Origin: an archaeon
GTDB taxonomy: Archaea > Iainarchaeota > Iainarchaeia > Iainarchaeales > CSSED10-239
NCBI GenBank assembly: GCA_041677685.1
Contig: JBAYPN010000015.1
Location: 1 to 18,539, forward strand
Reading direction: 5' to 3'
Length of the DNA: 18,539 nt
In this document: one piece after another, positions 2,710 to 18,539 of the stretch
Layout: every line of letters starts with the position of its first letter
Numbering within the stretch: the first letter of the stretch is position 1
The notes under the pieces: generated by a model
Told to the model about the DNA's origin: nothing
Database searches by the model: none
What the model saw: the letters and a program-made list of their open reading frames with translations, nothing else
Position numbers and translations under genes: made by a program

Positions 2710-4077
2710 ATGAAAAATAAATTTTTAAAGATTTTTATAATATTTATATTCTTTTTTATAAGTGTTGGGGTGGTAAGTTCATTTAGTATTCCATCAGTTG
2801 TAAAAATTACAGGTAGTATTGATTTAACAGAAACTAATGGAACTTATGTTGTTTATGCTTTTGTTAATGATCATTTAATAGGTTATAAATATTATTCAAA
2901 TTATGATGATTTAAGATTAGGACTTTATAATGGTTTTTTCTCAGACCCATTTGATATTTCTAAAACTGGAGATGGTGAGAGTTATAGTTTTGTTTTAAGT
3001 GTTAGTAGAACATATATAGTAAATGGAATAGACTATACTGTTATTAATAATTCAGACCCTATTCTTTTTCCAAACCCAAATTATAGTAATTTAAGTTATA
3101 CAGTAGACATTGTTGATAGTTCAATTACTACCCCTAAGATTAAAGATAATGCAGTTGGAGAAAATGACTTGGGAGCTAATTCAATTTGGACTGTTAGTAT
3201 TCCTGAAAATGTAGTAACTACAAATAAGATTAAGAATGATTCAATTAAAGGTACAGATTTTTCATTAGAGGCAATTGTTTCTGAAAAAGTAGCTGACAAC
3301 ACTATTGAAAAACCAAAGTTAAAAATAGAACCATCTAATCCTAACACAACCTATTCAGAATTCTTAGCAAAAACAGAAAATGATAATTTTTCTTGGGTTT
3401 CTAATGTTTCAGAAGATTATGAATTTGCTGTTGGGCAAGGTTTGTTTAAGGCTTTTGTTACAATGTCAAATACGACCTATGTAGGTATTGGTAATGAAAA
3501 AGTTGAAACAGGTATGTTTGAAGATAATTCTGTTACAACTAACAAAATAAAAGACTTAGCAGTAACAAATCCTAAACTTTCAGACAACTCAGTTTCAAGA
3601 CAAAAAATTATGGCTGATGCAATTGTTACTAGTAAGATTCAAAATCAAGCTGTAACAAATTCAAAAATTAAAAATAAAAACATAAATCAAGATAAATTAA
3701 ATAACACAGAATACTATTCACTATTAAAGTGTGGTCAAACATATTATAGTGTTTCTGGTAATATGTATGATTTAGAATTTGATAATTGTAATATTAATTA
3801 TAATAATTCAGAAAATAAATATTTAGTAACATATAATAATATTTTAATAAAGAAAGATGCTTCTACTAAATATTATTTTTCAAATAAAGATTTTACAAAA
3901 AATATAAATTTAATAAAAGGTTATTGTAACTCTAGAGGTGGAAGTCTAAACTCATACACTACAGAAAGTGGATCTTTTAATAGCCTTTTAGGTTTGACAG
4001 AAAAAGGAGAATTGCAAGTTGATTCTGGTACTTCTAAAATTAAAAATATAGTTTGTGAATTTTATTATATTGAATGA
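2710..4077 (+). CDS. secreted fibre-like repeat protein, paralogue 2 (455 aa), function unknown
   Basis: Signal peptide (MKNKFLKIFIIFIFFFISVGVVSS). Shared N-terminal motifs IPSVVKITGSI, GFFSD and NPNYSNL. 11-residue repeats start at residue 136 (nt 3115), the same residue number as in paralogue 1, for example SITTPKIKDNA, SVTTNKIKDLA and AVTNSKIKNKN. Four-Cys C-terminal domain. Confidence 0.8.
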   Translation: MKNKFLKIFIIFIFFFISVGVVSSFSIPSVVKITGSIDLTETNGTYVVYAFVNDHLIGYKYYSNYDDLRLGLYNGFFSDPFDISKTGDGESYSFVLSVSRTYIVNGIDYTVINNSDPILFPNPNYSNLSYTVDIVDSSITTPKIKDNAVGENDLGANSIWTVSIPENVVTTNKIKNDSIKGTDFSLEAIVSEKVADNTIEKPKLKIEPSNPNTTYSEFLAKTENDNFSWVSNVSEDYEFAVGQGLFKAFVTMSNTTYVGIGNEKVETGMFEDNSVTTNKIKDLAVTNPKLSDNSVSRQKIMADAIVTSKIQNQAVTNSKIKNKNINQDKLNNTEYYSLLKCGQTYYSVSGNMYDLEFDNCNINYNNSENKYLVTYNNILIKKDASTKYYFSNKDFTKNINLIKGYCNSRGGSLNSYTTESGSFNSLLGLTEKGELQVDSGTSKIKNIVCEFYYIE

Positions 4078-4100: not shown

Positions 4101-5477
4101 ATGATAAAAAAAATATTTGGAATTTTTGTAATAATAATTAGTTTTCTTTTAATTATAAATGTTGGATATGCACACGATGTTCCTTTTGTAATTAAGATAA
4201 CTGGAGATTTAAATTTAAGTGATACCTCTCAAGATATTGGAATAAAAGCATATGTTAATGTTATATCAAACGATAATTTAGTTTTAGATAAAACAAATTT
4301 ACCATATGCAAACTTTAACTCCGAAATAGCCACTGGTTTTTTTACAGATCCAATTTCTAAAGATTTGACAGGAACTGATAAGACTTTCCCATTAAGAATT
4401 ATAGTTGAAGTAAACAATAGTAGTTTTCCTAAAACAATTTCAATTTCAAATCCAAATTATAGTAGTTTAGAGTATTATGCAAACAATTTAGTGGTTAATT
4501 CTCTAAATAATAATAAATTTGCAGATAAATCAATCACAACAAATAAGCTAAAGGATAACAGTGTTTCAGAAAGTAAAATTAATTATGTTTATGGAGAAAA
4601 TTTAGTAGATAATGCAGTTACTGGTTCAAAGATTAAAAATAATACTTTAACTAAAAGTAATTTTGCAAATGAAGGTCTAAATTATGTTGATTTTAAAATA
4701 TTGAATAATAATTCTGGAATTAATTATTTGTCAAAGAATCCAGATAATTCTGCTTTTGTTGCAGTTGGCACAATTGCAGCTATTGATTTAATGGAAGCTG
4801 GTGCTGGTATATTAAAAACAAACCCTTCTGAAATGAATACTTTTTCAATCAAGGATCTAGGAATTGTAAATAGTATGATTGGTAACAATGAAATTACAAC
4901 TAATAAATTGAATGATGGGGCAATAATTACTTCTAAGCTTGCAGACGACTTTATAACAACAAATAAATTTGCTGAGGGTGCTGTGGAAAATGCAGACTTG
5001 GACATAATGGAAACTGTGGACTTTGCAAACAACTCTTTGACTGTTAAGAAGTTGTCTGAGGAGGCATTGACTGCACTCTTATGTAATTCTGTGGATGTTT
5101 TTGTTTATAGGAGTGGACCAAATACTTCTTTAGGAGTTGCAAGAACAAATCATGATTGTGATGTTAGTTTTAATGGTTCTGAAATAAATGTAACATATGG
5201 AAATGTAAGATTTGAGAATGTGACTGAATTGGATGGTGGACCTTTTAAACTAAATGGAAATGAGATTTCAGGAAAAGCATTTTGTGCATTGCATAATGGT
5301 AAATTTTTAAGTGGTGATGAAGTTAGCGATTCTGTTTCCAATATTGCTTGGGTGCAATCTGATAATCTATGGGCAAGAGGAACAACTACAGAGAAATATT
5401 ATTCAGATATAACTTGTGTTTTTGATGGTGTTACTAAATATTCATCAGGATCATCAGGAAATTCAGGGGTAGAATAA
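4101..5477 (+). CDS. secreted fibre-like repeat protein, paralogue 3 (458 aa), function unknown
   Basis: Signal peptide (MIKKIFGIFVIIISFLLIINVGYA/HD). Shared motifs VPFVIKITGDL, GFFTD and NPNYSSL. 11-residue repeats include SITTNKLKDNS, EITTNKLNDGA and FITTNKFAEGA. Four-Cys C-terminal domain followed by a Ser/Gly-rich tail. Confidence 0.8.
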   Translation: MIKKIFGIFVIIISFLLIINVGYAHDVPFVIKITGDLNLSDTSQDIGIKAYVNVISNDNLVLDKTNLPYANFNSEIATGFFTDPISKDLTGTDKTFPLRIIVEVNNSSFPKTISISNPNYSSLEYYANNLVVNSLNNNKFADKSITTNKLKDNSVSESKINYVYGENLVDNAVTGSKIKNNTLTKSNFANEGLNYVDFKILNNNSGINYLSKNPDNSAFVAVGTIAAIDLMEAGAGILKTNPSEMNTFSIKDLGIVNSMIGNNEITTNKLNDGAIITSKLADDFITTNKFAEGAVENADLDIMETVDFANNSLTVKKLSEEALTALLCNSVDVFVYRSGPNTSLGVARTNHDCDVSFNGSEINVTYGNVRFENVTELDGGPFKLNGNEISGKAFCALHNGKFLSGDEVSDSVSNIAWVQSDNLWARGTTTEKYYSDITCVFDGVTKYSSGSSGNSGVE

Positions 5478-7974: not shown

Positions 7975-8436
7975 ATGACAGAAAATGACATTAACACAAA
8001 ACAGAAATTTCTAGAGTTGTTACTCAAAGAAGACACAAAAGAACTGGGTTTGAGTGATCTTATTCAAATCCAAGAAAAGTTTAATGATCCATTAATACTT
8101 TCAGTAATCATTCATCAATTAATAGAAGAAAGAAAAAAGACAAACAACATACTTTTAGAACTAAGAGAGAAGTATGATAGCTTACAGTTTTTAGTTAAAA
8201 ACAACATAAAGACTAAGCAAGAACAAAACACAGATGTTTACAACATATTACCAGAGATAGATGACAAGATAATTTCTTTTATTAAAGTTAAACAAAAAGT
8301 TGACGCTGAGATGGTCCAAAATGAATTTAATTATAAGGGATCAAATGCAGCATCACAGAGATTAAACAAACTAGTAAACAATGGATACTTAAGGAAAGTG
8401 CAAGCAGGAAGAAAGGTATACTTTATTGTTAGGTAA
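7975..8436 (+). CDS. small winged helix-turn-helix DNA-binding protein (153 aa)
   Basis: The N-terminal half is charged and helical. The C-terminal ~60 aa have a classic wHTH pattern: DDKIISFIKVKQKVDAEMVQNEFNYKGSNAASQRLNKLVNNGYLRKVQAGRKVYFIV. This reads as helix, recognition helix and then a beta-hairpin wing containing GRK. Confidence 0.6.
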   Translation: MTENDINTKQKFLELLLKEDTKELGLSDLIQIQEKFNDPLILSVIIHQLIEERKKTNNILLELREKYDSLQFLVKNNIKTKQEQNTDVYNILPEIDDKIISFIKVKQKVDAEMVQNEFNYKGSNAASQRLNKLVNNGYLRKVQAGRKVYFIVR

Positions 8437-8829: not shown

Positions 8830-9165
8830 ATGGACTTTCAAAAAATAGGGGCTTATGCTTTTTTATTTGGAATTTTAATTTCAATTATTTTTGGATTGAT
8901 TTACTCTACAGGAAATCCAAGTTGGGTATCAGTAGCACTAATAATCTTAGGTTTAATAATTGGATTATTAAACATCTCTGACAGAAATGTATCTTTATTC
9001 TTAATTGCAGCAATAGCATTTATTGCAACAAGCAATTCTATAAATGCATTACCTGTAATTGGGGATCTTTTAAGAGGAATTTTAATAAATTTAGTTCACT
9101 TTGTAGGACCAGCTGCAATGATTGTTTCAATCGTTGCAATCATTAGGGTTGCAAATACTAAATAA
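8830..9165 (+). CDS. small polytopic membrane protein (111 aa, 3-4 predicted TM helices), function unknown
   Basis: ATG preceded by GGGGG (8816-8820). Almost the entire protein is made of hydrophobic helices: AYAFLFGILISIIFGLIY, VSVALIILGLIIGLL, LFLIAAIAFIA and FVGPAAMIVSIVAII. Confidence 0.65.
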   Translation: MDFQKIGAYAFLFGILISIIFGLIYSTGNPSWVSVALIILGLIIGLLNISDRNVSLFLIAAIAFIATSNSINALPVIGDLLRGILINLVHFVGPAAMIVSIVAIIRVANTK

Positions 9166-9210: not shown

Positions 9211-9360
9211 AGACTTTCCATATATAGATATATTTATATATAATTTGATGTAAATTATAATTATAAATTAAGAATAATATTTAAATCTAAAAACAACAAA
9301 ACAGAAAGAATAAAGAACAACAAAAACACAGCATTAAACATTTGTTTGGAAAGTATAGAT

Positions 9361-12300
9361 ATGGGTAAGGAAGAAAAAAAAAGAAATAATTTTTTCTCAA
9401 AAATATACAGTAGCTTAGAAAAAGGTTATTATAATTTTTCAAATTGGTTAACAAAGAAAGGAATCAACCTAAATGCTTTAAATAAAAAATTAGAAAATAA
9501 AGGAGTTCCTCCATTTATCTTGTTTGGTTCAATCTTACTAATTATAATCTTACTAGTATTATTCTTATTTGTGTTTAATGTTAATGCAACTTCTGAAATC
9601 AAATTTAGTATTCAAGGTTCTGACAACAAGTCAATCAATGATGCAAGCCTTGTGATTAAAGATGTTAAAGGTAAAAAGGTATTTTCAGGAACAGTAAACA
9701 ACAACGATGTTATTAAGATAAATCTAAAGCCAGGAAAAACATATTCCTTTTCTGCAATGAAAGATGGTTATAAGCCTTTTAACAAAGACTTTTTAATTGA
9801 ATCAAAAGAAGACCTAATTGTAATTGTTTTTAATGAAATTATTCAGAACGGAATCTTACAAATTAAAATAATAGATTCTCAAGACAAAAGAATTGTTGCA
9901 AATGCTCTAGTTACTGTTAGCTACTTGCTTGATGGGAAAAGAACAGAAATCTCAGGTAAACCAGATAAAAATAATTTCTATGATGTTAACTTACAAGTCC
10001 CAATCAACAAGGACATAGAGCTAATTGTCTCTGCTGACAAATACCAAGACCATAAAGAAACAATAAGATTAAATTCTGAAGCAGAAACTAGAAACATAGA
10101 GCTTGTTTTTAATAGTGGGCTTTTAGAAGGAAAAAGCAGAATTACTTTTGTGGTTAATGATGAGGCTGGAGAGTTGTTGAATGATTCTATAGTTGAAGTC
10201 TATAATCTATCTGATCAACTAATAGCTCAGAACAGAACTGTTGATGGAAGAGCAATTATTGATGTTGATTCTGGCTCAACAATCAACTACAAGGTAAGTA
10301 AAGAAGAATACAGGACCTTTGTAAGTGATCCTTTAATCTCTTTTAAAATATTAAACAAAGAAGAGATAATAAACATTACCCTAAAGAAAGGAGGAAGCTC
10401 TTTGAAAGTAAAAATACTTGATTCAATTTCCTTTAATCTTTTACAAGATGCTTCTGTCTCCATTTATGATCAAAACCAATCATTGTTAGACAACAAGACA
10501 ACTGACCTTTCAGGAACTATCAACTTCCAAGGCTTAGAAACAAACTCAGAGTTTATTGTTGTTGGTTGTAAGCAAAATTATTTTTGTGAAAGTAAAAAAG
10601 TTTCTTTAATTAATTTCTCAGAACTAGAGTTAAGGTTAGAAGAAATAAACATAAATAATAGTGCAATTTTAGAAGTCTTTGTTGTTGACTTTAAAAATCT
10701 ACCTGTAGATAATGCAAAAATTAAAATCTTTGAAATAAAAGATGAAATTGAATATCCTTATAATGATGAACCATTTGTTCTAGATGCAACTGGTGGACTT
10801 TCCTTACCTTTAAAGGTTGGTTCTAAATATCTTGTGTATGCTTATGTTGGAGATGTTGAAGACTACCAGTATATAACCATTAGTAACAAACTACAAAATA
10901 GAATTATTTTTACAATTGAGCAATCTTCAAAAATCTTAACCTTAGACTTACTAGATAGCTTTGGACAGAAAATAAGTTCAGGACATGTATCAATTTCTGC
11001 AAAGGACGGAACAATTTTATATGACTCAGACATCAACTCTGCATTAGATGATATTATGTTTCGTACAGATGGTTATTCTGACTTTATATTAAATTACACA
11101 GATTCAAATGGTGTAACAACAACTGGGACACTATCAGCAAATGATGCAGACTCAGCAAACCATTTAGGCTTTAAACTTAACCCTAAAGTAGTTGGTGATT
11201 TTCCAATCATTGACTTTGTAGGCATACAGAATAGTAGAGGGGAAAAAATAAATTATATTTCTCCAAACAATGATTATTATTTAATATTTGATGTAATTGT
11301 TCCACAAGGCACAACCAAAGCAGGAGTGCATATTAGAGCTGGAGAGGACACTGTTACTGATTCTGAAAATCAAAGTTATGGAATCACAGGCTTTATGGCA
11401 GACACAACAAACTTCACCTACTCAACAACCTACAATCCTTTACCTGAACCTGGTTCACAATCAATAGATGTCTTAAACCAAGGAAATGCAGGAAACATTA
11501 ACAAATGGATTGAGCTAAAATGGGATAATAAGCTTGGAGTTACAAACAAGCAAATTAAAATTAAAGTAAAAGCAATTGACTCTTCTACATTTAAACCAAA
11601 ATTTAAATACAGGGCATGGGTTGAAAGAGACTTTGAGGTTTACAGAGATCCACAAGACTCAACCCTACAAAAGAAATACTCAACAAACAACAGACAACAA
11701 CTTTATGCAGACACAAAAGAAATAACTGTAGAGTTATTTGATGTTCCTGCAGAATGTAAAGATGATATTTGTGTGTCTTATAGCTTTATTGACTCAGATG
11801 GAATTAGTTATTCTAAAGAGGACTTTTTTGCATTAAAGGGAGATGTGTTTGCTTTAGAAGCTACACTTTACAGTAATAAAAATAGAGTAATTAAATTAAA
11901 CACAAAGACATCAACTACCCAACCAGCAATCTCATTTATAAGTGCTGATGAAGGAACTTTAGCTTTTCCAACAAACTTTAATCTAGGCACAATTTCAGAA
12001 CTTGAACTAAACAAAGATGGAATTAATTTAAGGGCTGGAGAGCGAAACAAAGTCTACACTTACTTTGTCTCAAAAGCAATTGGTGTAAGTTATATTGATT
12101 CAAAATTTATTTTAGAAGATGACTCTGCTCTTGAACAAAGATTAAGCTTTGAGGTTCTTGACAAAAGATACTTAAGAATATTATTTAATCCTGACCTAAT
12201 ATTACCATTTGGTTCTAAACTAGAGTTAGAGGTCTTTGATTCAGCAAATGGAAACCCAATTGAAAATGCTTTTATAAAGATTGAAGATGAGCAAGGGCAA

Positions 12301-15300
12301 TTTATAAGACTAATAAAAGGAGATAGACTAAATGGAAGGGCAGGAAAATATGTAATCAATTCAGATTTTGTTGTAAACAAATTAAATTTAACAATCTCTG
12401 CTTATGGTTATGTGCCATTTACCAAACAACTTTTGATTGCTGATGACTCTGTTCTTGTTGCTCCAAAGGAAGTGTTGATTAACTTAGGGGTTGATCAAAT
12501 TTCTCAAACTGTAAATTTCAATTTAGAAAATATTTCTGACACCTCAGTAACTGACATCTATGTTGGAGAACCTGTTTGGGTAAATGGGGCTGACACCTTG
12601 ACTTTGGATGTTAGAGGACCACCAAGTGTTACTAAGAAAAATAAAATAAACTTTCAAGCAATTGCAACAGTTTCAAAAGATGCATTATTTGATTCTGCAT
12701 ATGCAAATGTTCCAATCTATGGGCTTGTGGGGAATAGGCAAGTTGCAACTGTTGTTTCTATAAGGATAAACAGAGGGTTGATAGTTGATGACTGTTTGGT
12801 AATTGCACCAAAAAAGATTGACACTTTTGTTGGGCTAAACACCAATTTCAATTATGATGATTATTATGGGGCTGGAGACTACCAAGACTTTATAGGCTCA
12901 CAAAATTTAAATTATACACCTAATCAAAGCTATAACACAGGATATGGTGGGTCTATTCCAGGTTCAAGTAATTCCAATTCCAACTACAATTATTATAATG
13001 ATGGCTTTAACAGATATATTAACAACTTCATAACCTCTAGAGCAGGAGCCTCTGAAAACACAGTAGTTTTTACTATTCAGAATAAATGTGAACAAATAGT
13101 TTTCTTAAACCCAAAGTTAGTTCCAATCTCTTCAAATTCAAACAATGATCTTGAAATTATATTAAATCAGTTGACTATACTTCCAGGTGAAGAAAAGCTA
13201 TATGATGTGCTTATTAAAAACACAAGTGATAGAGAACAAATTAAAAAATATAAATTTAATATTTTGTGGGAAAATTCTTTTTATAATCTTTCACCTACAG
13301 AACTTAATGTTGACTTGATAGATGTAAGTAAAGCTTTGTGGGTTGCACCTACACAATTACAGATCTATTTATCACAGACAACCGAACAACAACCAGCAAT
13401 AACAAGCACAAGAATTATGATTAAAAATATTGGAAATGTTCCAATAACTGACATACAGATAAGCACTTACCCACAGATCAAGTCTGCAAATATTGGAGTA
13501 ACTGAATACCCAAGGGAGATAAAGATTTTAGAGCCTGGTAAACGAGTTCCTGTTGATCTAAAGTTTACAGTTAACATTAATAGAGCAACTTTAGAAGACA
13601 TGTACTTTGTTGTTACTGGAAAGGCAGCAGGTGTGAAAAATCCAGTCTTTGCAAAAACAACTGCCTACTTTTTAATTTCTTCTCCTAATTGTCTAAAGAT
13701 TAGTCCTAAAAATCTAGACTTTACTTTAAATTTAGGAGAGAAAAAAGCAAGAAATATTTCTATTAATAACCAATGTGCAGAGCCTGTAGCAATTGTTGGA
13801 ATTGATAAAAGACTTGGTAGTTACCAACAAGCCTTTGGGAATAACGCTGTGTCTTTAGTTCCAACATCTGGGATGGGGGTAATTCCACCAAACGGTTTTG
13901 CAGACTTTTCATTTTCAATAACTGCAAATGCATATGGTGGACAACCAAAGGTTCCTGTAACAATTATTGGACAAGCTTTAAATTCAGGTAATTATGTAAC
14001 TTCAGAGAGCACTTTAGTTTCTTTAAATATTCTATCTAAAGATCAAGATGAACAAAATGATTTCTTACAATCTTTTGAAGTAACTCTTCCTGTTTGTAAT
14101 AACCCTTCTGAGTCTAAGACTGTGTACATGCCTTTAATCTCTGTTAATGACTGTACAGGTAGGGATGGTTATTGTGATTCTTATGGAGCTTCTGAATTGA
14201 TACTATCAAAGATTGATGAGATGTATGGAAAAATACAGACAGTTGCTGCACACTCCCAAAATCAATTATTAAAAACTGGTTGTTCTGTTCAAAAGGCTTT
14301 ACAAGGATATTGTCCAATCTCTGATCTTGGGGGGGACTTAGGTCCTGTTGAGTTTGATGTTTACCTACAGAACGATTCTTTATCTTATGACCTAGTCAAA
14401 GAGATCTTAAGCAAATCAGATTATAAATTTAAAAAATATTTTGTTGATGTTGCAGTTCCAAACAGTAACCTTACAGGGTATGGTACCTATCAATATGGGG
14501 GGAAAATAAACATCCCTAATCTTTCTGGTTGTGGGAAATATAAATTAGAGTTGAATGCCTTTATTGGAGCTAACCAAGACAGCATCTTTCCAAACAGAGT
14601 TAACTTCTTAGTAAATTTAGTTTCTTATAAACAAACTGAACAATGTGAAAAAAGTATTGAAAATTATTTAAATTATTTGCCGTGGGACATAGACCTTACA
14701 AAGAATAAAAGTAAAGGCACCTGGTTAACTGTGTTTTCAGGTGATGAGAATGTAGCAAAAGAGATTTTAAGTGGAGTTAGTAAATTTGAAAAGAATGATA
14801 ATAGATATGTGAAGGGTAACATTCCAAGCACTAAACAAAATCATCTTAACATCAGAGTTGGAAAGATTAATGAAGATCAAGAGGCTTTAGCAAAAATATA
14901 CTTTAATGATCTACAAAAAAGTCCTTCCTCTAAACCTGAACAACTAAATATTGTAATAAATAATAGATATGCAATTTCTGGAACTTCACAATTGCCTGAA
15001 AAAGTATTGACTGATGCTAAGATCTTAATCAATAATTTTATAAGTAAGACTGATTATACAGAAAATTGTATTTCAGAAAATCTAGATTATATGTTAATCT
15101 TAAAAGTTATAAAAGCAGGGAGATTAGAATTTGATCCTAAAGAAAAGACAAGTGTTGTTTTAGTTGATAAAGTTTGTACTGATCTAAACATTGTTTCTGA
15201 TATTTTAGAAAATGTTGTTTTAAACCTAAAAGCACCAAATGACCTAAACACTTGGTTTGAATATAGAAATAAAAAATATGATTCTCTTGGTTTAGATTTA

Positions 15301-17367
15301 AAACAAGGAGTGTCAAATGATTTTAATGTATGTTATATTCCACAAAATGATCAGATCTATAATCTGGTTGGAAAAGACATAATTGTAAGTGCAAGAAGTA
15401 TTTATTCTACAAGTCTTAAAGCAGGAAATGTTGGACAAAGAAAGTCTGAGGCAACCATCCATTTGTCAAGTTGCGGAGTTACACCTGTTGATGTTTTAGA
15501 GATTGTAAGTAACAAGGTGGTTGCTGCTAACAAGGATGGTGGTTCTGCACAAGACACCTATTATGCTTTGGTTGATTGGAACAGATCATATAACCCTACA
15601 GACACAGAGACTTTGTGTGACACAATAAATAAGTATATTGAGAAAAATCCAAGCTCTAGTTTATTTTTTGACTATAAGTTAGAAAATTGTAATACTGGAA
15701 AGACTAAGGCTGAAAAGGAAGCTAAAAACAATAAAGCAATAAATAATGCTTTGACTAAATATTTTGTACCATGTATGGCAACCTGTACAGCTTGTACTGC
15801 TGGGACAAATGCTATTTTTGGGATGGTGCCTGTTTTGGGGCAGATCAAGTTGTTGTCAGGGGTAGTTGTTGATTGTGGAATTTTTGCTTGCGGTTTACCA
15901 TCAGCAAGCATATATTTGAATACTGTTACTGGAAAGGGATTTTCAGATTTTATTGATGGTTGGTTAACAAAGTTATTTATTGGAGAACAAAATAAACAAA
16001 CAGGCACAGAGATTCATCTTGCTAGAAGTGTTGTTGGGGGAATTGAGGGGATGAGTACCTGGATTGCAGAAGTCTTTAATGGAACAAATCTTGAGAGTCC
16101 TGGGGCAACAACACTTGGTATTGGGACTGCACAGGCACTTTCAGGGTCAAGGATGGTAAAAGCAACTCCACTTGGTTTTGAGAAGGGAGCTTCTTCTGTC
16201 TTAGAAGGAGTTTCAGGGACTTTAACTCCTGTAGGGGCAGTGGTTCCAACACCTCCTGTAACTCCACCTCCTGTAACTCCTCCGATAGTTACAAATGTTC
16301 CACATACAGTTGATGCAAGACTTGGAAAATATGTAAGTTACATGAACGGAACAAGCACTTCCTATTCCTTTGTTCCACATGATCCTGCGATGGCTGCAAG
16401 AATTTTGCCAAGAGTAACAAATACTGCTGGAGCATACATACCTAGTCAAATTGAGAGTTTGACAGCAAGTGAGTTAGATGACTTGGTTTCACTTATAAGG
16501 AATGGGACTTTTTCAAAAGCAAGGCCTAATCTTTTTGCATTAAATCCAAGCTCTTTGGCTAGTCAAGTAGAAACATTTGCAATTAAAAAATATCCAACAC
16601 ATCCCTTTACCTTTGGAGTTGGGGCAACAGCTACAACACCTCCTGCAGGAACAGCAGGAACACCTGGGGGAGCTGGGGCAACAGCCTTAGAAGGAATCTC
16701 ACAAGTAGAGTATGATGATCTGTTAAATACAATAGAGACCCAAAAGGCAGAAATTAAAGGTAATCTAGATAAAATTACTGCTGAGAAAGCAAAACTTACA
16801 GATCTACAAGATGGTTCTAAAAAATGGTACCAGAAACATAAGAAAGCAACAGGAACTAAAAAAGCACTTACAAGACTTGAGGTAAATGCAAAGCCACTAG
16901 AAGACGCTATGAAACAATTAGATGATCTAGAAAGAGCATTAAAGCCAGGGGGAACAAGATTAACTCCAACTGTTGTAGATGCTGCAGGAAACCCAAAAAT
17001 CCCAATTAATGATGCTATTAAAAATCAGATTACTGATTTAGAAAGTTCTGTGGTAAGAAAAGCAAAAGTAAAGTTTAGTGCAAAATTAGCAAATTTTGGG
17101 GCAGGAATGTTTAGGGCTCTTGCTTGTGGAATTTTAGGGAATGTTGCTGGAAGTAATGTTTTAACAGATACTGGAATTACAGGTTTAGATCATTCTGTGT
17201 TAATCAACGATAATGTTAATTTTAATAGAAACACATTATATAAGGTTGACATTATAGACAACCAAGACTCACAAGATCCAAATAACAAAAGTAGATATGA
17301 TTTAAAGATAGAAAGCTATGTTGGTTCAACATCTAATAATCAGAGGATAGATAATTGTTCTAAATAG
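9361..17367 (+). CDS. giant membrane-anchored surface protein (2,668 aa from ATG 9361, or 2,673 aa from TTG 9346)
   Basis: One uninterrupted ORF of 8 kb. The features in order are:
- a basic N-terminus followed by one TM helix (PPFILFGSILLIIILLVLFLFVF, nt ~9508-9576)
- about six tandem ~85-aa beta-sandwich repeats resembling CarboxypepD_reg/PEGA domains (nt ~9595-11100), with one more at ~12170-12440
- Ig-like modules with a PapD/ASH/CARDB-like pattern (~12440-13980)
- an N/Y/G/S low-complexity segment (12838-13030)
- a Cys-containing distal region
- a compositionally distinct C-terminal module (15772-17367)
No enzymatic motif was recognised. Confidence 0.85.
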   Translation: MGKEEKKRNNFFSKIYSSLEKGYYNFSNWLTKKGINLNALNKKLENKGVPPFILFGSILLIIILLVLFLFVFNVNATSEIKFSIQGSDNKSINDASLVIKDVKGKKVFSGTVNNNDVIKINLKPGKTYSFSAMKDGYKPFNKDFLIESKEDLIVIVFNEIIQNGILQIKIIDSQDKRIVANALVTVSYLLDGKRTEISGKPDKNNFYDVNLQVPINKDIELIVSADKYQDHKETIRLNSEAETRNIELVFNSGLLEGKSRITFVVNDEAGELLNDSIVEVYNLSDQLIAQNRTVDGRAIIDVDSGSTINYKVSKEEYRTFVSDPLISFKILNKEEIINITLKKGGSSLKVKILDSISFNLLQDASVSIYDQNQSLLDNKTTDLSGTINFQGLETNSEFIVVGCKQNYFCESKKVSLINFSELELRLEEININNSAILEVFVVDFKNLPVDNAKIKIFEIKDEIEYPYNDEPFVLDATGGLSLPLKVGSKYLVYAYVGDVEDYQYITISNKLQNRIIFTIEQSSKILTLDLLDSFGQKISSGHVSISAKDGTILYDSDINSALDDIMFRTDGYSDFILNYTDSNGVTTTGTLSANDADSANHLGFKLNPKVVGDFPIIDFVGIQNSRGEKINYISPNNDYYLIFDVIVPQGTTKAGVHIRAGEDTVTDSENQSYGITGFMADTTNFTYSTTYNPLPEPGSQSIDVLNQGNAGNINKWIELKWDNKLGVTNKQIKIKVKAIDSSTFKPKFKYRAWVERDFEVYRDPQDSTLQKKYSTNNRQQLYADTKEITVELFDVPAECKDDICVSYSFIDSDGISYSKEDFFALKGDVFALEATLYSNKNRVIKLNTKTSTTQPAISFISADEGTLAFPTNFNLGTISELELNKDGINLRAGERNKVYTYFVSKAIGVSYIDSKFILEDDSALEQRLSFEVLDKRYLRILFNPDLILPFGSKLELEVFDSANGNPIENAFIKIEDEQGQFIRLIKGDRLNGRAGKYVINSDFVVNKLNLTISAYGYVPFTKQLLIADDSVLVAPKEVLINLGVDQISQTVNFNLENISDTSVTDIYVGEPVWVNGADTLTLDVRGPPSVTKKNKINFQAIATVSKDALFDSAYANVPIYGLVGNRQVATVVSIRINRGLIVDDCLVIAPKKIDTFVGLNTNFNYDDYYGAGDYQDFIGSQNLNYTPNQSYNTGYGGSIPGSSNSNSNYNYYNDGFNRYINNFITSRAGASENTVVFTIQNKCEQIVFLNPKLVPISSNSNNDLEIILNQLTILPGEEKLYDVLIKNTSDREQIKKYKFNILWENSFYNLSPTELNVDLIDVSKALWVAPTQLQIYLSQTTEQQPAITSTRIMIKNIGNVPITDIQISTYPQIKSANIGVTEYPREIKILEPGKRVPVDLKFTVNINRATLEDMYFVVTGKAAGVKNPVFAKTTAYFLISSPNCLKISPKNLDFTLNLGEKKARNISINNQCAEPVAIVGIDKRLGSYQQAFGNNAVSLVPTSGMGVIPPNGFADFSFSITANAYGGQPKVPVTIIGQALNSGNYVTSESTLVSLNILSKDQDEQNDFLQSFEVTLPVCNNPSESKTVYMPLISVNDCTGRDGYCDSYGASELILSKIDEMYGKIQTVAAHSQNQLLKTGCSVQKALQGYCPISDLGGDLGPVEFDVYLQNDSLSYDLVKEILSKSDYKFKKYFVDVAVPNSNLTGYGTYQYGGKINIPNLSGCGKYKLELNAFIGANQDSIFPNRVNFLVNLVSYKQTEQCEKSIENYLNYLPWDIDLTKNKSKGTWLTVFSGDENVAKEILSGVSKFEKNDNRYVKGNIPSTKQNHLNIRVGKINEDQEALAKIYFNDLQKSPSSKPEQLNIVINNRYAISGTSQLPEKVLTDAKILINNFISKTDYTENCISENLDYMLILKVIKAGRLEFDPKEKTSVVLVDKVCTDLNIVSDILENVVLNLKAPNDLNTWFEYRNKKYDSLGLDLKQGVSNDFNVCYIPQNDQIYNLVGKDIIVSARSIYSTSLKAGNVGQRKSEATIHLSSCGVTPVDVLEIVSNKVVAANKDGGSAQDTYYALVDWNRSYNPTDTETLCDTINKYIEKNPSSSLFFDYKLENCNTGKTKAEKEAKNNKAINNALTKYFVPCMATCTACTAGTNAIFGMVPVLGQIKLLSGVVVDCGIFACGLPSASIYLNTVTGKGFSDFIDGWLTKLFIGEQNKQTGTEIHLARSVVGGIEGMSTWIAEVFNGTNLESPGATTLGIGTAQALSGSRMVKATPLGFEKGASSVLEGVSGTLTPVGAVVPTPPVTPPPVTPPIVTNVPHTVDARLGKYVSYMNGTSTSYSFVPHDPAMAARILPRVTNTAGAYIPSQIESLTASELDDLVSLIRNGTFSKARPNLFALNPSSLASQVETFAIKKYPTHPFTFGVGATATTPPAGTAGTPGGAGATALEGISQVEYDDLLNTIETQKAEIKGNLDKITAEKAKLTDLQDGSKKWYQKHKKATGTKKALTRLEVNAKPLEDAMKQLDDLERALKPGGTRLTPTVVDAAGNPKIPINDAIKNQITDLESSVVRKAKVKFSAKLANFGAGMFRALACGILGNVAGSNVLTDTGITGLDHSVLINDNVNFNRNTLYKVDIIDNQDSQDPNNKSRYDLKIESYVGSTSNNQRIDNCSK

Positions 17368-17421
17368 TTTTTTTTAATTTTTCTTTTTAGATTTTAATTT
17401 TTCTTTTTAGATTTTAATTTT
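17368..17421 (+). terminator. T-rich 20-bp tandem repeat (about 2.5 copies) immediately after the giant gene, candidate terminator
   Basis: A T8 run starts right after the TAG stop. The unit (A/T)TTTTAATTTTTCTTTTTAG occurs at 17371-17390 and 17391-17410, with a partial copy at 17411-17421. Each unit carries T4-T5 runs. Confidence 0.45.
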
Positions 17422-17577
17422 ATTATAAAGTATTTTTCTTATTTTGGTGTACATGCTTATGTTTGTTTTCAAGATATAAAAAAAATAAGGAAGCTAGGCA
17501 TAAAACTTCAACCATCTCTATTTATAAACTTTTTCATAATATATATTATTAATTTTATTAAAAATTATATATTTTTT

Positions 17578-17590: not shown

Positions 17591-18539
17591 ATGTTTGAAT
17601 TATTTAAGAATAGTAAGGGTCAGATTTCTGTTGAAGTTTTGACAATTGTTGGAATATTAGTTATTGGTGGAATTATTTTTGGAGTGTTTTATTTATCTCA
17701 GATTAATAGAAGTATAGATGATGCTGATCAATTAGACACTAGTATAGGCGATCAATTTGGAGAGGTTTTGACACCTGTGGGAATGGGTAATATTCTTCCA
17801 ACTTGTTCTGATAATATACAGAATGGACTAGAGCAAGGTGTAGATTGTGGAGGTCCTTGTCCACCGTGTGTAATTTCTGGTGATGATTGTGGGGATGGTT
17901 ATTGTGATGTTCTTGGGGGAGAATGTGATACTTGTCCTCAAGATTGTATAAATAATGAGTGTGATCCAATTCCAACAACTTTTCTTTTAGAAGTAGATCC
18001 TGAGAGTTACACAGGATTTGTTGGACAGACTTATTATGGTCCTGAAGTTACTATTATTTTAAATCAATCTTCTAGTGTTGATTTGTCATTAAAGGTTGAA
18101 AAAAATAATGCTTTAAATAATTTAATAATTACAGATGAATGTACTTATGATGGTATCCAAATTAATGGTAATACTTTTATTGGAAATTACACTTCTGATG
18201 CTATTTTCTTTAAAAATATTGTATGTTCTCAAGAAGACACTTATTATTTCACATTTACTGGTGATGATGGTGAATATCAGATTATAAGACCATTCGAATA
18301 CACAACAACCTCAGATATCACTCCTCCAGGAAACAACAATTATGCTCTATGTTCAACTTCTGCTCTTTCAGGAGGCTCTGATACTTTAAGAGTTTGTTTA
18401 AATGATTATACAACTACTTTAGACTTAGGTGGTTCTGACTATTTAACAATCTATGTTAACCAACCAGATGCTTTAGAAAATAATTGTAAGCTTACTTCAA
18501 AGGGTAGCAAGATTTGTGTGTATGTTGGTAATAGTTGGA
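17591..18539 (+). CDS. archaeal type IV pilin-like protein with class III signal peptide and a Cys-rich module (3'-truncated by the window end)
   Basis: This ORF is not in the supplied track because it has no stop inside the window. I translated it by hand and it stays open for 316 codons from ATG 17591. The N-terminus is MFELFKNSKG/QISVEVLTIVGILVIGGIIFGVF. That matches the archaeal prepilin (class III, DUF361-type) signature: a short basic leader, KG, then Q-x-S-x-E and a hydrophobic helix. A 10-Cys module follows (nt 17804-17962), and then a beta-rich region. Confidence 0.8.
   Translation, partial: MFELFKNSKGQISVEVLTIVGILVIGGIIFGVFYLSQINRSIDDADQLDTSIGDQFGEVLTPVGMGNILPTCSDNIQNGLEQGVDCGGPCPPCVISGDDCGDGYCDVLGGECDTCPQDCINNECDPIPTTFLLEVDPESYTGFVGQTYYGPEVTIILNQSSSVDLSLKVEKNNALNNLIITDECTYDGIQINGNTFIGNYTSDAIFFKNIVCSQEDTYYFTFTGDDGEYQIIRPFEYTTTSDITPPGNNNYALCSTSALSGGSDTLRVCLNDYTTTLDLGGSDYLTIYVNQPDALENNCKLTSKGSKICVYVGNSW

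Follow-up and report, generated by a model that had tools for sequence, protein, structure and literature searches.

Among DPANN archaea, the Nanohaloarchaeota have giant SPEARE proteins, which are defined by domains of the serine-protease, laminin-G (adhesion) and restriction-endonuclease types; the anchor of most of them lies near the C-terminus, with the nuclease on the cytoplasmic side (Hamm et al. 2019, PMC6642349). The 18,539-nt stretch of Iainarchaeota DNA analyzed here (the window; ~28% G+C) contains a single giant open reading frame (ORF; 9346–17367, plus strand) for a protein of 2673 residues, whose C-terminal module (residues 2143–2673, nt 15772–17367; the last ~530 residues) is the subject of this work. 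SPEARE is the functionally closest known system: the likeness lies in a multi-thousand-residue, single-transmembrane (TM), mostly extracytoplasmic DPANN protein with a proposed role in contact (PMC6642349) and in the combination of adhesion-type domains with enzymatic or toxin-like parts. The window protein differs from SPEARE in being N-terminally anchored and in ending on an unclassified module; no homology between the two was detected, and Pfam finds no serine-protease, laminin-G or restriction-endonuclease domain in the 2673-residue protein.

In architecture, the closest known cases are phage tape-measure and tail-tip proteins, with their hydrophobic segments and lysins, and the layouts of polymorphic toxins. 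The "tape measure" pb2 of phage T5 is credited with fusogenic and muralytic activities (Boulanger 2008, cited in PMC5099701), and data on phage TP901-1 suggest that the hydrophobic regions of the tape-measure protein may bind chaperones instead of inserting into membranes. Long helices, Gly-rich and moderately hydrophobic segments and, in some members, a C-terminal cell-wall hydrolase are reminiscent of such proteins. The module differs from them as the end of a membrane-anchored cellular protein and not a component of a virion: it has no PHROG match, its motif occurs on no viral contig, and the window neighbors of the giant gene are cellular (NurA, an M48 peptidase and a β-CASP/RMMBL-like hydrolase).

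Sequence comparison places the module as the native C-terminal end of one Iainarchaeota-specific family of orthologous giant proteins. We favor, with a probability of about 50%, the reading that the module is the extracellular, chain-distal contact end of a giant surface protein, built from a probably disulfide-stapled hydrophobic hairpin, flexible spacers, a helix-loop-helix and a knob that can carry an enzyme.

A lineage-specific family of giant proteins

Relatives were sought with a word-indexed protein search, an exhaustive HMMER search over 1.84 billion representative proteins and a DNA scan for the pattern C-x3-C-x2-C-x25-DCGxFxCGxP. Among the matches listed by the word-indexed search is P0001, on a 5.8-kb Joint Genome Institute (JGI) contig (L001) that is 84% identical to positions 11827–17443 of the window. 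HMMER returned 12 hits, six of which are full-length proteins of 2629–2978 residues that likewise end in the module; the remainder are fragments, save for a weak match to the repeat protein P0013 (E 3.9e-4), which we take to be spurious. The fragment P0012 clusters with a protein of 2525 residues, so that full-length orthologs range from 2525 to 2978 residues, and the fragment P0008 (locus L004) lies just after a run of Ns in its scaffold. The DNA pattern was found, with no chance matches, in 2 of 185,579 GTDB species genomes (“Candidatus Diapherotrites archaeon” and “Candidatus ainarchaeum sp.”) and on three JGI metagenome contigs, and gave no match in 2.9 million viral contigs.

The carriers thus found are ~10 related giant proteins, all from metagenome-assembled genomes (MAGs) of Iainarchaeota/Diapherotrites (DPANN, kingdom Nanobdellati) or from unbinned metagenome contigs. 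HMMER and the GTDB and JGI pattern scans therefore show a module that is not widespread, being confined to a single lineage-specific family. The first-pass annotation of this DNA had suggested looking for the module by itself or fused to other N-terminal regions, and neither arrangement was found among the HMMER and pattern-scan matches. Every short match is a fragment or lies on a very short contig, and an independent or mobile module was ruled out on these grounds. Literature searches on giant proteins of DPANN archaea, on NlpC and on surface proteins of the Iainarchaeota yielded nothing on this family.

Two side observations concern L001. At ~4400–4530 of that contig (corresponding to ~16330 of the window), the giant gene is broken in two by the loss of 1 nt from an A-run; purifying selection acts on each half, and the split is therefore either an assembly error or very recent. 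The contig is annotated at NCBI as belonging to a “Bacteroidales bacterium” MAG and is probably mis-binned.

Beyond these relatives, the module gave no significant match in Pfam, PHROG or NCBIfam, in PDB sequences (searched with single sequences and with profiles) or in Foldseek searches of PDB and BFVD. The best insignificant matches, a PDB phage “Tail protein” (E 0.32), a streptococcal M protein (E 0.38) and siphovirus “minor tail proteins” (E 0.11), reflect the Gly-rich and helical composition of the module. Structure prediction with AlphaFold2 (AF2) from a 10-sequence alignment reached a mean predicted local distance difference test score (pLDDT) of 49.8, and single-sequence AF2 a pLDDT of 40; at such low confidence, the Foldseek negatives carry little weight.

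Anatomy of the module

The division of the module given below is based on family alignments (A1, A3 and A4) and the AF2 models. Ratios of nonsynonymous to synonymous substitution (dN/dS) come from a codon-level comparison with the 84%-identical contig L001, and membrane propensity is expressed as Kyte-Doolittle hydropathy over 19 residues (KD19) and as summed Hessa free energy (dG).

9346–17367, plus strand: giant ORF; short K/R-rich N-terminus, strong TM anchor, β-rich ectodomain of ~2,000 residues, C-terminal module
9517–9573 (aa 58–76), plus strand: N-terminal TM anchor; KD19 3.41, summed Hessa dG −6.9 kcal/mol
15637–15771 (aa 2098–2142), plus strand: conserved lead-in, FFDY..C...K-rich helix...YF; dN/dS 0.05
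15772–15924 (aa 2143–2193), plus strand: block A, Cys-rich hydrophobic helical hairpin; dN/dS 0.10, arm dG +4.2 and +5.1
15925–16230 (aa 2194–2295), plus strand: Gly-rich variable region, including VVGGIEGMSTWIAEVF and GATTLGIGTAQALSG; pLDDT 22–47, dN/dS 0.15 against the close relative
16231–16284 (aa 2296–2313), plus strand: Pro/Thr linker 1, with an exact 15-bp duplication at 16250–16280
16303–16590 (aa 2320–2415), plus strand: small helical domain, optional; conserved LDDL..I, dN/dS 0.13
16621–16695 (aa 2426–2450), plus strand: linker 2, ATATTPPAGTAGTPGGAGATA; dN/dS 0.64, the least constrained element; G+C 0.60
16702–16941 (aa 2453–2489 and 2501–2532), plus strand: helix-loop-helix, a coiled-coil candidate, with a K/G-rich loop; dN/dS 0.23
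17083–17172 (aa 2580–2609), plus strand: block d, Gly-rich helix NFGAGxxRGxxCGILGNxAG; AF2 helix, invariant G..C..G..G
17173–17367 (aa 2610–2673 and stop), plus strand: block e, β-hairpin “knob”, GL.NS...F.KN.LY...RY..I....QRIDNC

The true start of the giant ORF is likely the ATG at 9361 (MGKEEKKRNNFFSKIY), which aligns with the N-termini of orthologs; the mechanical ORF start is a TTG at 9346. A K/R-rich N-terminus of ~55 residues precedes the anchor, and in the ectodomain Pfam detects CarboxypepD_reg above threshold (44 bits) together with weak matches to bMG3 and DUF7507.

All elements that the first-pass annotation had listed for the module were recovered where it had placed them, with CMATCTAC... 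starting at aa 2143 (nt 15772), PTPPVTPPPVTPP at aa 2301, QVEYDDLL at aa 2453 (nt 16702) and FGAGMFRALACG at aa 2584 (nt 17095). Its starting point of 15772 for the region has to be moved: the alignment begins the conserved region further upstream, at about aa 2098. The lead-in (aa 2098–2142) has invariant F, C, K, N and F columns (A3), the first AF2 helix begins within it at aa 2119, and alignment indicates that lead-in and hairpin are one conserved unit. The module is under purifying selection (dN/dS of the N part, aa 828–2097, is 0.07). It diverges faster than the stalk among distant orthologs, at 26–40% identity versus 38–55%.

Block A follows the pattern C-x3-C-x2-C, 26 residues, C-x4-C-G-x-P, in which the 26-residue stretch contains a conserved P..GQ turn and has the Asp of DCG as its last residue; the alignment (A3) shows invariant C, C, C, D, C, G, F, C, G and P. 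C-x3-C...C-x3/4-C is present in all ten lineages, the third Cys (x2-C) in nine of ten, and the second motif is C-x4-C in most. Between the Cys clusters lies a hydrophobic stretch of 18–29 residues with 1–5 charges across the ten lineages. AF2 places helices at 2119–2158 and 2163–2193, with low pLDDT. The position sums of the paired cysteines are nearly equal (2143 + 2184 = 4327; 2147 + 2179 = 4326) and thus fit two inter-arm bridges across an antiparallel hairpin with its turn at P..GQ. From the positions of these cysteines, the arms are most likely stapled by disulfides.

Disulfide-stapled helical hairpins are the hallmark of twin-CX3C/CHCH proteins such as the small Tim proteins and the Cox17 type. 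Block A is reminiscent of these in having two short Cys motifs on antiparallel helices, with a spacing that fits two inter-helix disulfides; the motif pair is found in 10/10 lineages and the helix-turn-helix is an AF2 prediction of low confidence. It differs from them in a far longer and hydrophobic loop, a third Cys in 9/10 lineages and a second motif that is mostly C-x4-C, and there is no sequence relationship. A radical-SAM-like reading of the CxxxCxxC motif was rejected, as Pfam finds no radical-SAM domain and the context is probably extracellular.

The Gly-rich region that follows (aa 2194–2295) is rich in insertions and deletions and aligns poorly across the family. The small helical domain at aa 2320–2415, an element that the first-pass annotation had not listed, comprises four helices in ~100 residues and has the highest AF2 confidence of the module (10-residue block means 57–82); it is missing from the orthologs P0003 and P0007 (A1). 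Linker 2 combines a G+C at first and second codon positions (GC1/GC2) of 0.72/0.92 with a third-position value (GC3) of 0.16, and carries a 9-bp repeat at 16645–16662.

The next element had been proposed as a coiled coil of ~90 residues. What stands of this proposal is a pair of long AF2 helices, of 37 and 32 residues (10-residue block means 44–71), and a heptad score that exceeds 99.9% of the null in the equivalent region of most relatives; the score is crude and also rewards β-strand patterns. The heptad signal of the window protein itself is weak: it does not exceed the null, and the score did not single out the helices of this protein. Generic coiled-coil Pfam matches are sub-threshold in all members.

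At the C-terminus, what had been described as a ~70-residue polar tail is instead the conserved block e, with invariant F, N, Y and D, a near-invariant C and AF2 strands at 2631–2638 and 2651–2658. Block e (dN/dS 0.09 for blocks d and e together) is one of the two best-conserved blocks of the module. The window protein ends 2 residues past the conserved knob Cys. Of 12 sequences, 10 have both C2593 and C2671 and one lacks the two, and the number of conserved cysteines in aa 2115–2671 is even (8). Two special roles for the terminal Cys were rejected: CaaX or other C-terminal lipidation, as the distance from this Cys to the C-terminus varies among orthologs, and intein-like “N|C” cleavage at DNC, as the preceding residue may be N, H, K or S.

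Domains that follow the knob in relatives

In orthologs, the R-x-D-x-C boundary of the knob is followed by 2–12 residues, by an NlpC/P60 domain or by a Cys/His domain. The NlpC/P60 domain (PF00877) of P0007 spans aa 2537–2649 directly after the knob and scores 39.6 bits against a cut-off of 23; its DCxG motif is seen as GLDCVGL, and a YVHAAIYI stretch resembles the His motif. P0009, P0010 and P0011 share a domain of ~170 residues past the knob with an invariant Cys and His (GQC..F / SHVVLYVG-type). A resemblance of this domain to the papain-like CHAP/NlpC fold could not be turned into an assignment: Pfam, PHROG, NCBIfam, a PDB profile search and hhalign against P0007 gave none, the best value being E 0.09 (NlpC_P60). 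PF00877 is absent from the window protein by Pfam, and the protein stops at the knob. The notion of an “effector end”, put forward in the first-pass annotation, is thus indirectly supported by the NlpC/P60 domain in one ortholog and the Cys/His domain in three, while the window protein itself carries no payload.

In proteins of the polymorphic-toxin or CdiA type, the pre-toxin region is conserved, and the effector that comes after it at the C-terminus can be swapped. The family matches this layout, in architecture only, as a conserved region followed by variable C-terminal domains: conservation ends sharply at R-x-D-x-C, after which come nothing, NlpC/P60 or the Cys/His domain. Pfam finds no homology of the module to known pre-toxin domains. 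The family differs also in having three payload states among ~10 lineages and an N-terminal TM anchor, hence another mode of secretion; no immunity gene was identified, and two downstream ORFs of L009 (84 and 191 residues) were not analyzed.

A hydrolase at the C-terminal end would fit an outward-acting end. The same domains bear on a different reading, in which the module has a structural or assembly role, capping, oligomerizing or cross-linking the protein into a surface layer or fiber without any cell contact, and the hydrolases are unrelated late additions. Generic coiled-coil signals across the family, the even count of conserved cysteines, the secreted repeat proteins and pilin-like genes that adjoin the giant gene, and the payload-free window protein are all consistent with such a role. 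It leaves unexplained why a hydrolase (P0007) and a different domain (three lineages) were added at exactly this end, and why a hydrophobic hairpin should be under some of the strongest constraint in the module. On balance, we consider a purely structural role unlikely.

Membrane tests

The N-terminal anchor (aa 58–76) served as the positive control for the hydrophobicity tests. In every ortholog, the N-terminal segment is the only clear TM segment, with a summed dG of −5.4 to −7.8. As the only strong TM segment is N-terminal and preceded by a basic N-terminus, default topology places the C-terminal region outside the cell.

The segment FGAGMFRALACGILGNVAGSNVL in block d had been taken for a C-terminal membrane segment. 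Its best summed dG is +4.2 kcal/mol and its KD 1.41, versus −6.9 and 3.4 for the anchor. The segment lies 67 residues before the C-terminus and ~50 residues beyond the helices; behind it come a conserved domain and, in relatives, a further 200–300 residues, which rules it out both as a tail anchor and as the TM segment of a fusogen. The module thus lacks the single TM segment within ~30 residues of the C-terminus, right after a coiled coil, that marks SNAREs and tail-anchored proteins, as well as the C-terminal TM segment that follows the second heptad region in class I fusogens.

These values bear directly on the speculation of the first-pass annotation about membrane-inserting or fusion machinery like class I fusogens or SNAREs, which can be spelled out as a fusion or pore-forming device with block A as fusion peptide, followed by a coiled coil and by block d as TM segment, that would zipper two membranes together. 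The order of elements is superficially fusogen-like, AF2 predicts long helices, and the summed dG of the hairpin arms is within the range computed for the fusion peptides of influenza HA2 (+4.3) and HIV gp41 (+1.8); the payload in one relative also suggests action on the envelope of another cell. Yet block d is followed by a conserved domain of 64 residues and by up to ~300 residues more, and the real anchor is 2,000 residues away at the N-terminus. The helices form a short helix-loop-helix (37 + 32 residues) with weak heptads in the window protein, and ~260 residues of variable linker and optional domain separate them from the supposed peptide. The search against fusogens and pore-formers that had been recommended gave no match to the module at E < 0.1 in Pfam, PHROG, PDB sequences or Foldseek (PDB and BFVD). 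The analogy fails both the defining test of a C-terminal anchor and the similarity tests, and we regard it as very improbable.

The hairpin is a closer case. Apart from the N-terminal anchor, no segment of the protein is more hydrophobic than block A (KD19 1.85 versus 3.41; classical threshold 1.6), and the summed dG of its arms ranges from +2.4 to +6.2 across orthologs, so that its membrane status is borderline. It could be argued that block A is a TM hairpin that re-enters the producer's own membrane as a second anchor, making the ~2,000-residue ectodomain a loop and holding the remaining ~480 residues near the membrane. Each arm has ~20–25 residues with a short conserved turn between them, the arms of some orthologs reach +2.4 to +3.8, the block A profile weakly matches TM1 of G-protein-coupled receptors (GPCRs), and an even number of spans would keep the C-terminal hydrolase of P0007 outside. 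However, the arms are 8–14 kcal/mol less favorable than the real anchor, and the first is made mostly of Cys, Thr, Ala, Gly and Ser. Both arms contain a conserved N/D, five charged residues lie between the Cys clusters in P0006, and only 18 residues separate the clusters in L004. The flank before the first arm is strongly Lys-rich, yet would be outside the cell on this model. What is conserved in the arms, as the alignments indicate, is the Cys pattern and not hydrophobicity or hydrophobic length. A second anchor is accordingly improbable in our estimate.

Composition and local G+C

The first-pass annotation had pointed to a shift toward G, A, T and P residues and to a higher local G+C in the module, both of which are borne out. 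From the N part to the module, Gly rises from 5.9 to 9.4%, Ala from 4.6 to 9.4%, Thr from 5.7 to 10.0% and Pro from 3.5 to 5.8%, for a combined change from 19.7 to 34.6%. The G+C reaches a maximum of 0.44 at 16001–16500, versus 0.23–0.35 over the upstream 15.5 kb of the window. The cluster of minus-strand ORFs at 15672–16449 is likewise present, with four ORFs of 111, 63, 75 and 48 residues. The module has a GC3 of 0.205 and the N part one of 0.218; a prediction of the module G+C from the codon usage of the N part gives 0.383, the observed value. The G+C rise is wholly explained by amino-acid usage, and the module is distinct at the protein level only. A foreign origin, considered as a candidate explanation, was ruled out, since GC3 and codon usage are the same as in the rest of the gene; with GC3 unchanged, it has no support.

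The 15-bp tandem duplication behind the Pro/Thr linker is exact by Tandem Repeats Finder (16250–16280, period 15, 2.1 copies, 100%). The repeat of linker 1 has a 15-bp period in the window (CCT CCT GTA ACT...) and an 18-bp period in L001 at ~4430–4470 (CCA CCA GTA ACT...). Within each genome the copies share their synonymous codons, and these codons differ between the window and L001, which suggests independent slippage or homogenization. A perfect 20-bp T-rich tandem repeat (TTTTAATTTTTCTTTTTAGA; 2.5 copies) at 17372–17421, directly after the stop of the giant ORF, may be a terminator region.

Proposed arrangement of the surface protein

In the arrangement that we favor, the N-terminal anchor would hold the giant protein in the cell's own membrane with its K/R-rich N-terminus inside, and a stalk of ~2,000 residues, made of Ig-like and β-sandwich domains, would project outward and carry the module at the chain end farthest from the anchor. 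The module would be a series of small folds with flexible Gly/Ala/Thr/Pro spacers between them: (a) an α-hairpin with C-x3-C and C-x3/4-C on its arms and a hydrophobic stretch of 18–29 residues between them; (b) an optional helical domain of ~100 residues; (c) a helix-loop-helix of ~80 residues; and (d) a terminal knob of Gly-rich helix and β-hairpin with the second conserved Cys pair. As a contact end, the module would engage the envelope of another cell. The hydrophobic tip of the hairpin would be the only plausible membrane- or envelope-interacting element, and the knob may be an attachment point for an optional enzymatic payload, absent in the window protein. We infer the extracellular distal location, the disulfides and the role in cell contact from sequence features.

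Several points weigh against this arrangement. “Distal” presupposes an extended stalk, and the episymbiotic lifestyle named in the first-pass annotation is an assumption. The organisms are probably anaerobes, and the four Cys of the proposed disulfides could instead bind metal. The AF2 confidence is low (pLDDT 49.8), and all fold and profile searches were negative. Block A exceeds the classical KD19 threshold (1.85 versus 1.6), and its profile weakly matches GPCR TM1 (E 0.0022 for the whole sequence, E 1 for the domain), so that a membrane-embedded hairpin keeps some probability. The window protein carries no hydrolase, so that the payload argument would hold by orthology only, and one of the four payload-like extensions is statistically supported as a hydrolase.

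A stronger version of the same arrangement would make the module a contact-dependent, envelope-breaching arm, in which the hydrophobic tip (18–29 residues) of a disulfide-stapled hairpin wedges into the membrane or envelope of the partner, and the helix-loop-helix and knob place a swappable payload on the partner wall, in the manner of polymorphic effectors. We hold this version to be distinctly doubtful.

Neighboring genes

Upstream of the giant gene, three tandem paralogs of 455–460 residues (1304–2686, 2710–4077 and 4101–5477, plus strand), 22–23% identical to each other, have signal-peptide-like N-termini and repeats of the type ITTxKIKDxAVTxxKI. They match PHROG “tail fiber” families (phrog_892, E down to 1e-23) and no Pfam family; a 446-residue homolog lies upstream of the giant gene in L004. 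Closer to the giant gene are a protein of 153 residues with a weak winged-helix/ArsR-like C-terminus (7975–8436, plus strand) and a multi-span membrane protein of 111 residues with weak SLATT_6 matches (8830–9165, plus strand). Homologs of both, at 65–79% identity, precede the giant gene in L004 and L009 (the 111-residue match in L004 is partial), which points to a conserved cluster of genes.

Downstream, an ORF at 17591–18539 (plus strand) that runs off the end of the window starts with MFELFKNSKGQISVEVLTIVGILVIGGIIFGVFYL and continues with a Cys-rich stretch, CGGPCPPC..CGDGYCD..C..C. Its N-terminus resembles the class III (type IV pilin-like) signal peptides of archaea. Homologs of 558 and 571 residues with a similar pilin-like N-terminus (MFNQKGFNLFTAMIALML) come after the giant gene at two other loci. 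In L002 (10121–18100), from a Diapherotrites MAG, the giant ortholog and its 558-residue neighbor are followed by two more giant CarboxypepD_reg genes, for proteins of 2341 and 1603 residues, both without the C-terminal module; the latter runs past the end of the fetched locus.

Implications

To our knowledge, the physical engagement of DPANN archaea with other cells is understood mainly from a few cultivated pairs, and we know of no cultivated representative of the Iainarchaeota. The module, which as judged by its sequence has no family assignment and forms ~10 sequence clusters in public data, offers three testable handles: a conserved unclassified end-module, its restriction to one phylum and a hydrolase appended in at least one lineage. 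Two misleading cues have been removed, as the local rise in G+C does not mark foreign DNA and the supposed C-terminal “membrane segment” does not anchor the protein in a membrane. Should the module turn out to be a structural cap and no more, the protein would be an ordinary surface protein of one lineage. The action of a hydrolase on peptidoglycan or pseudomurein would indicate what kind of cell the partner is, and if an envelope-breaching arm were true, this archaeal lineage would have an attack or attachment module of its own, not described before, with polymorphic effectors.

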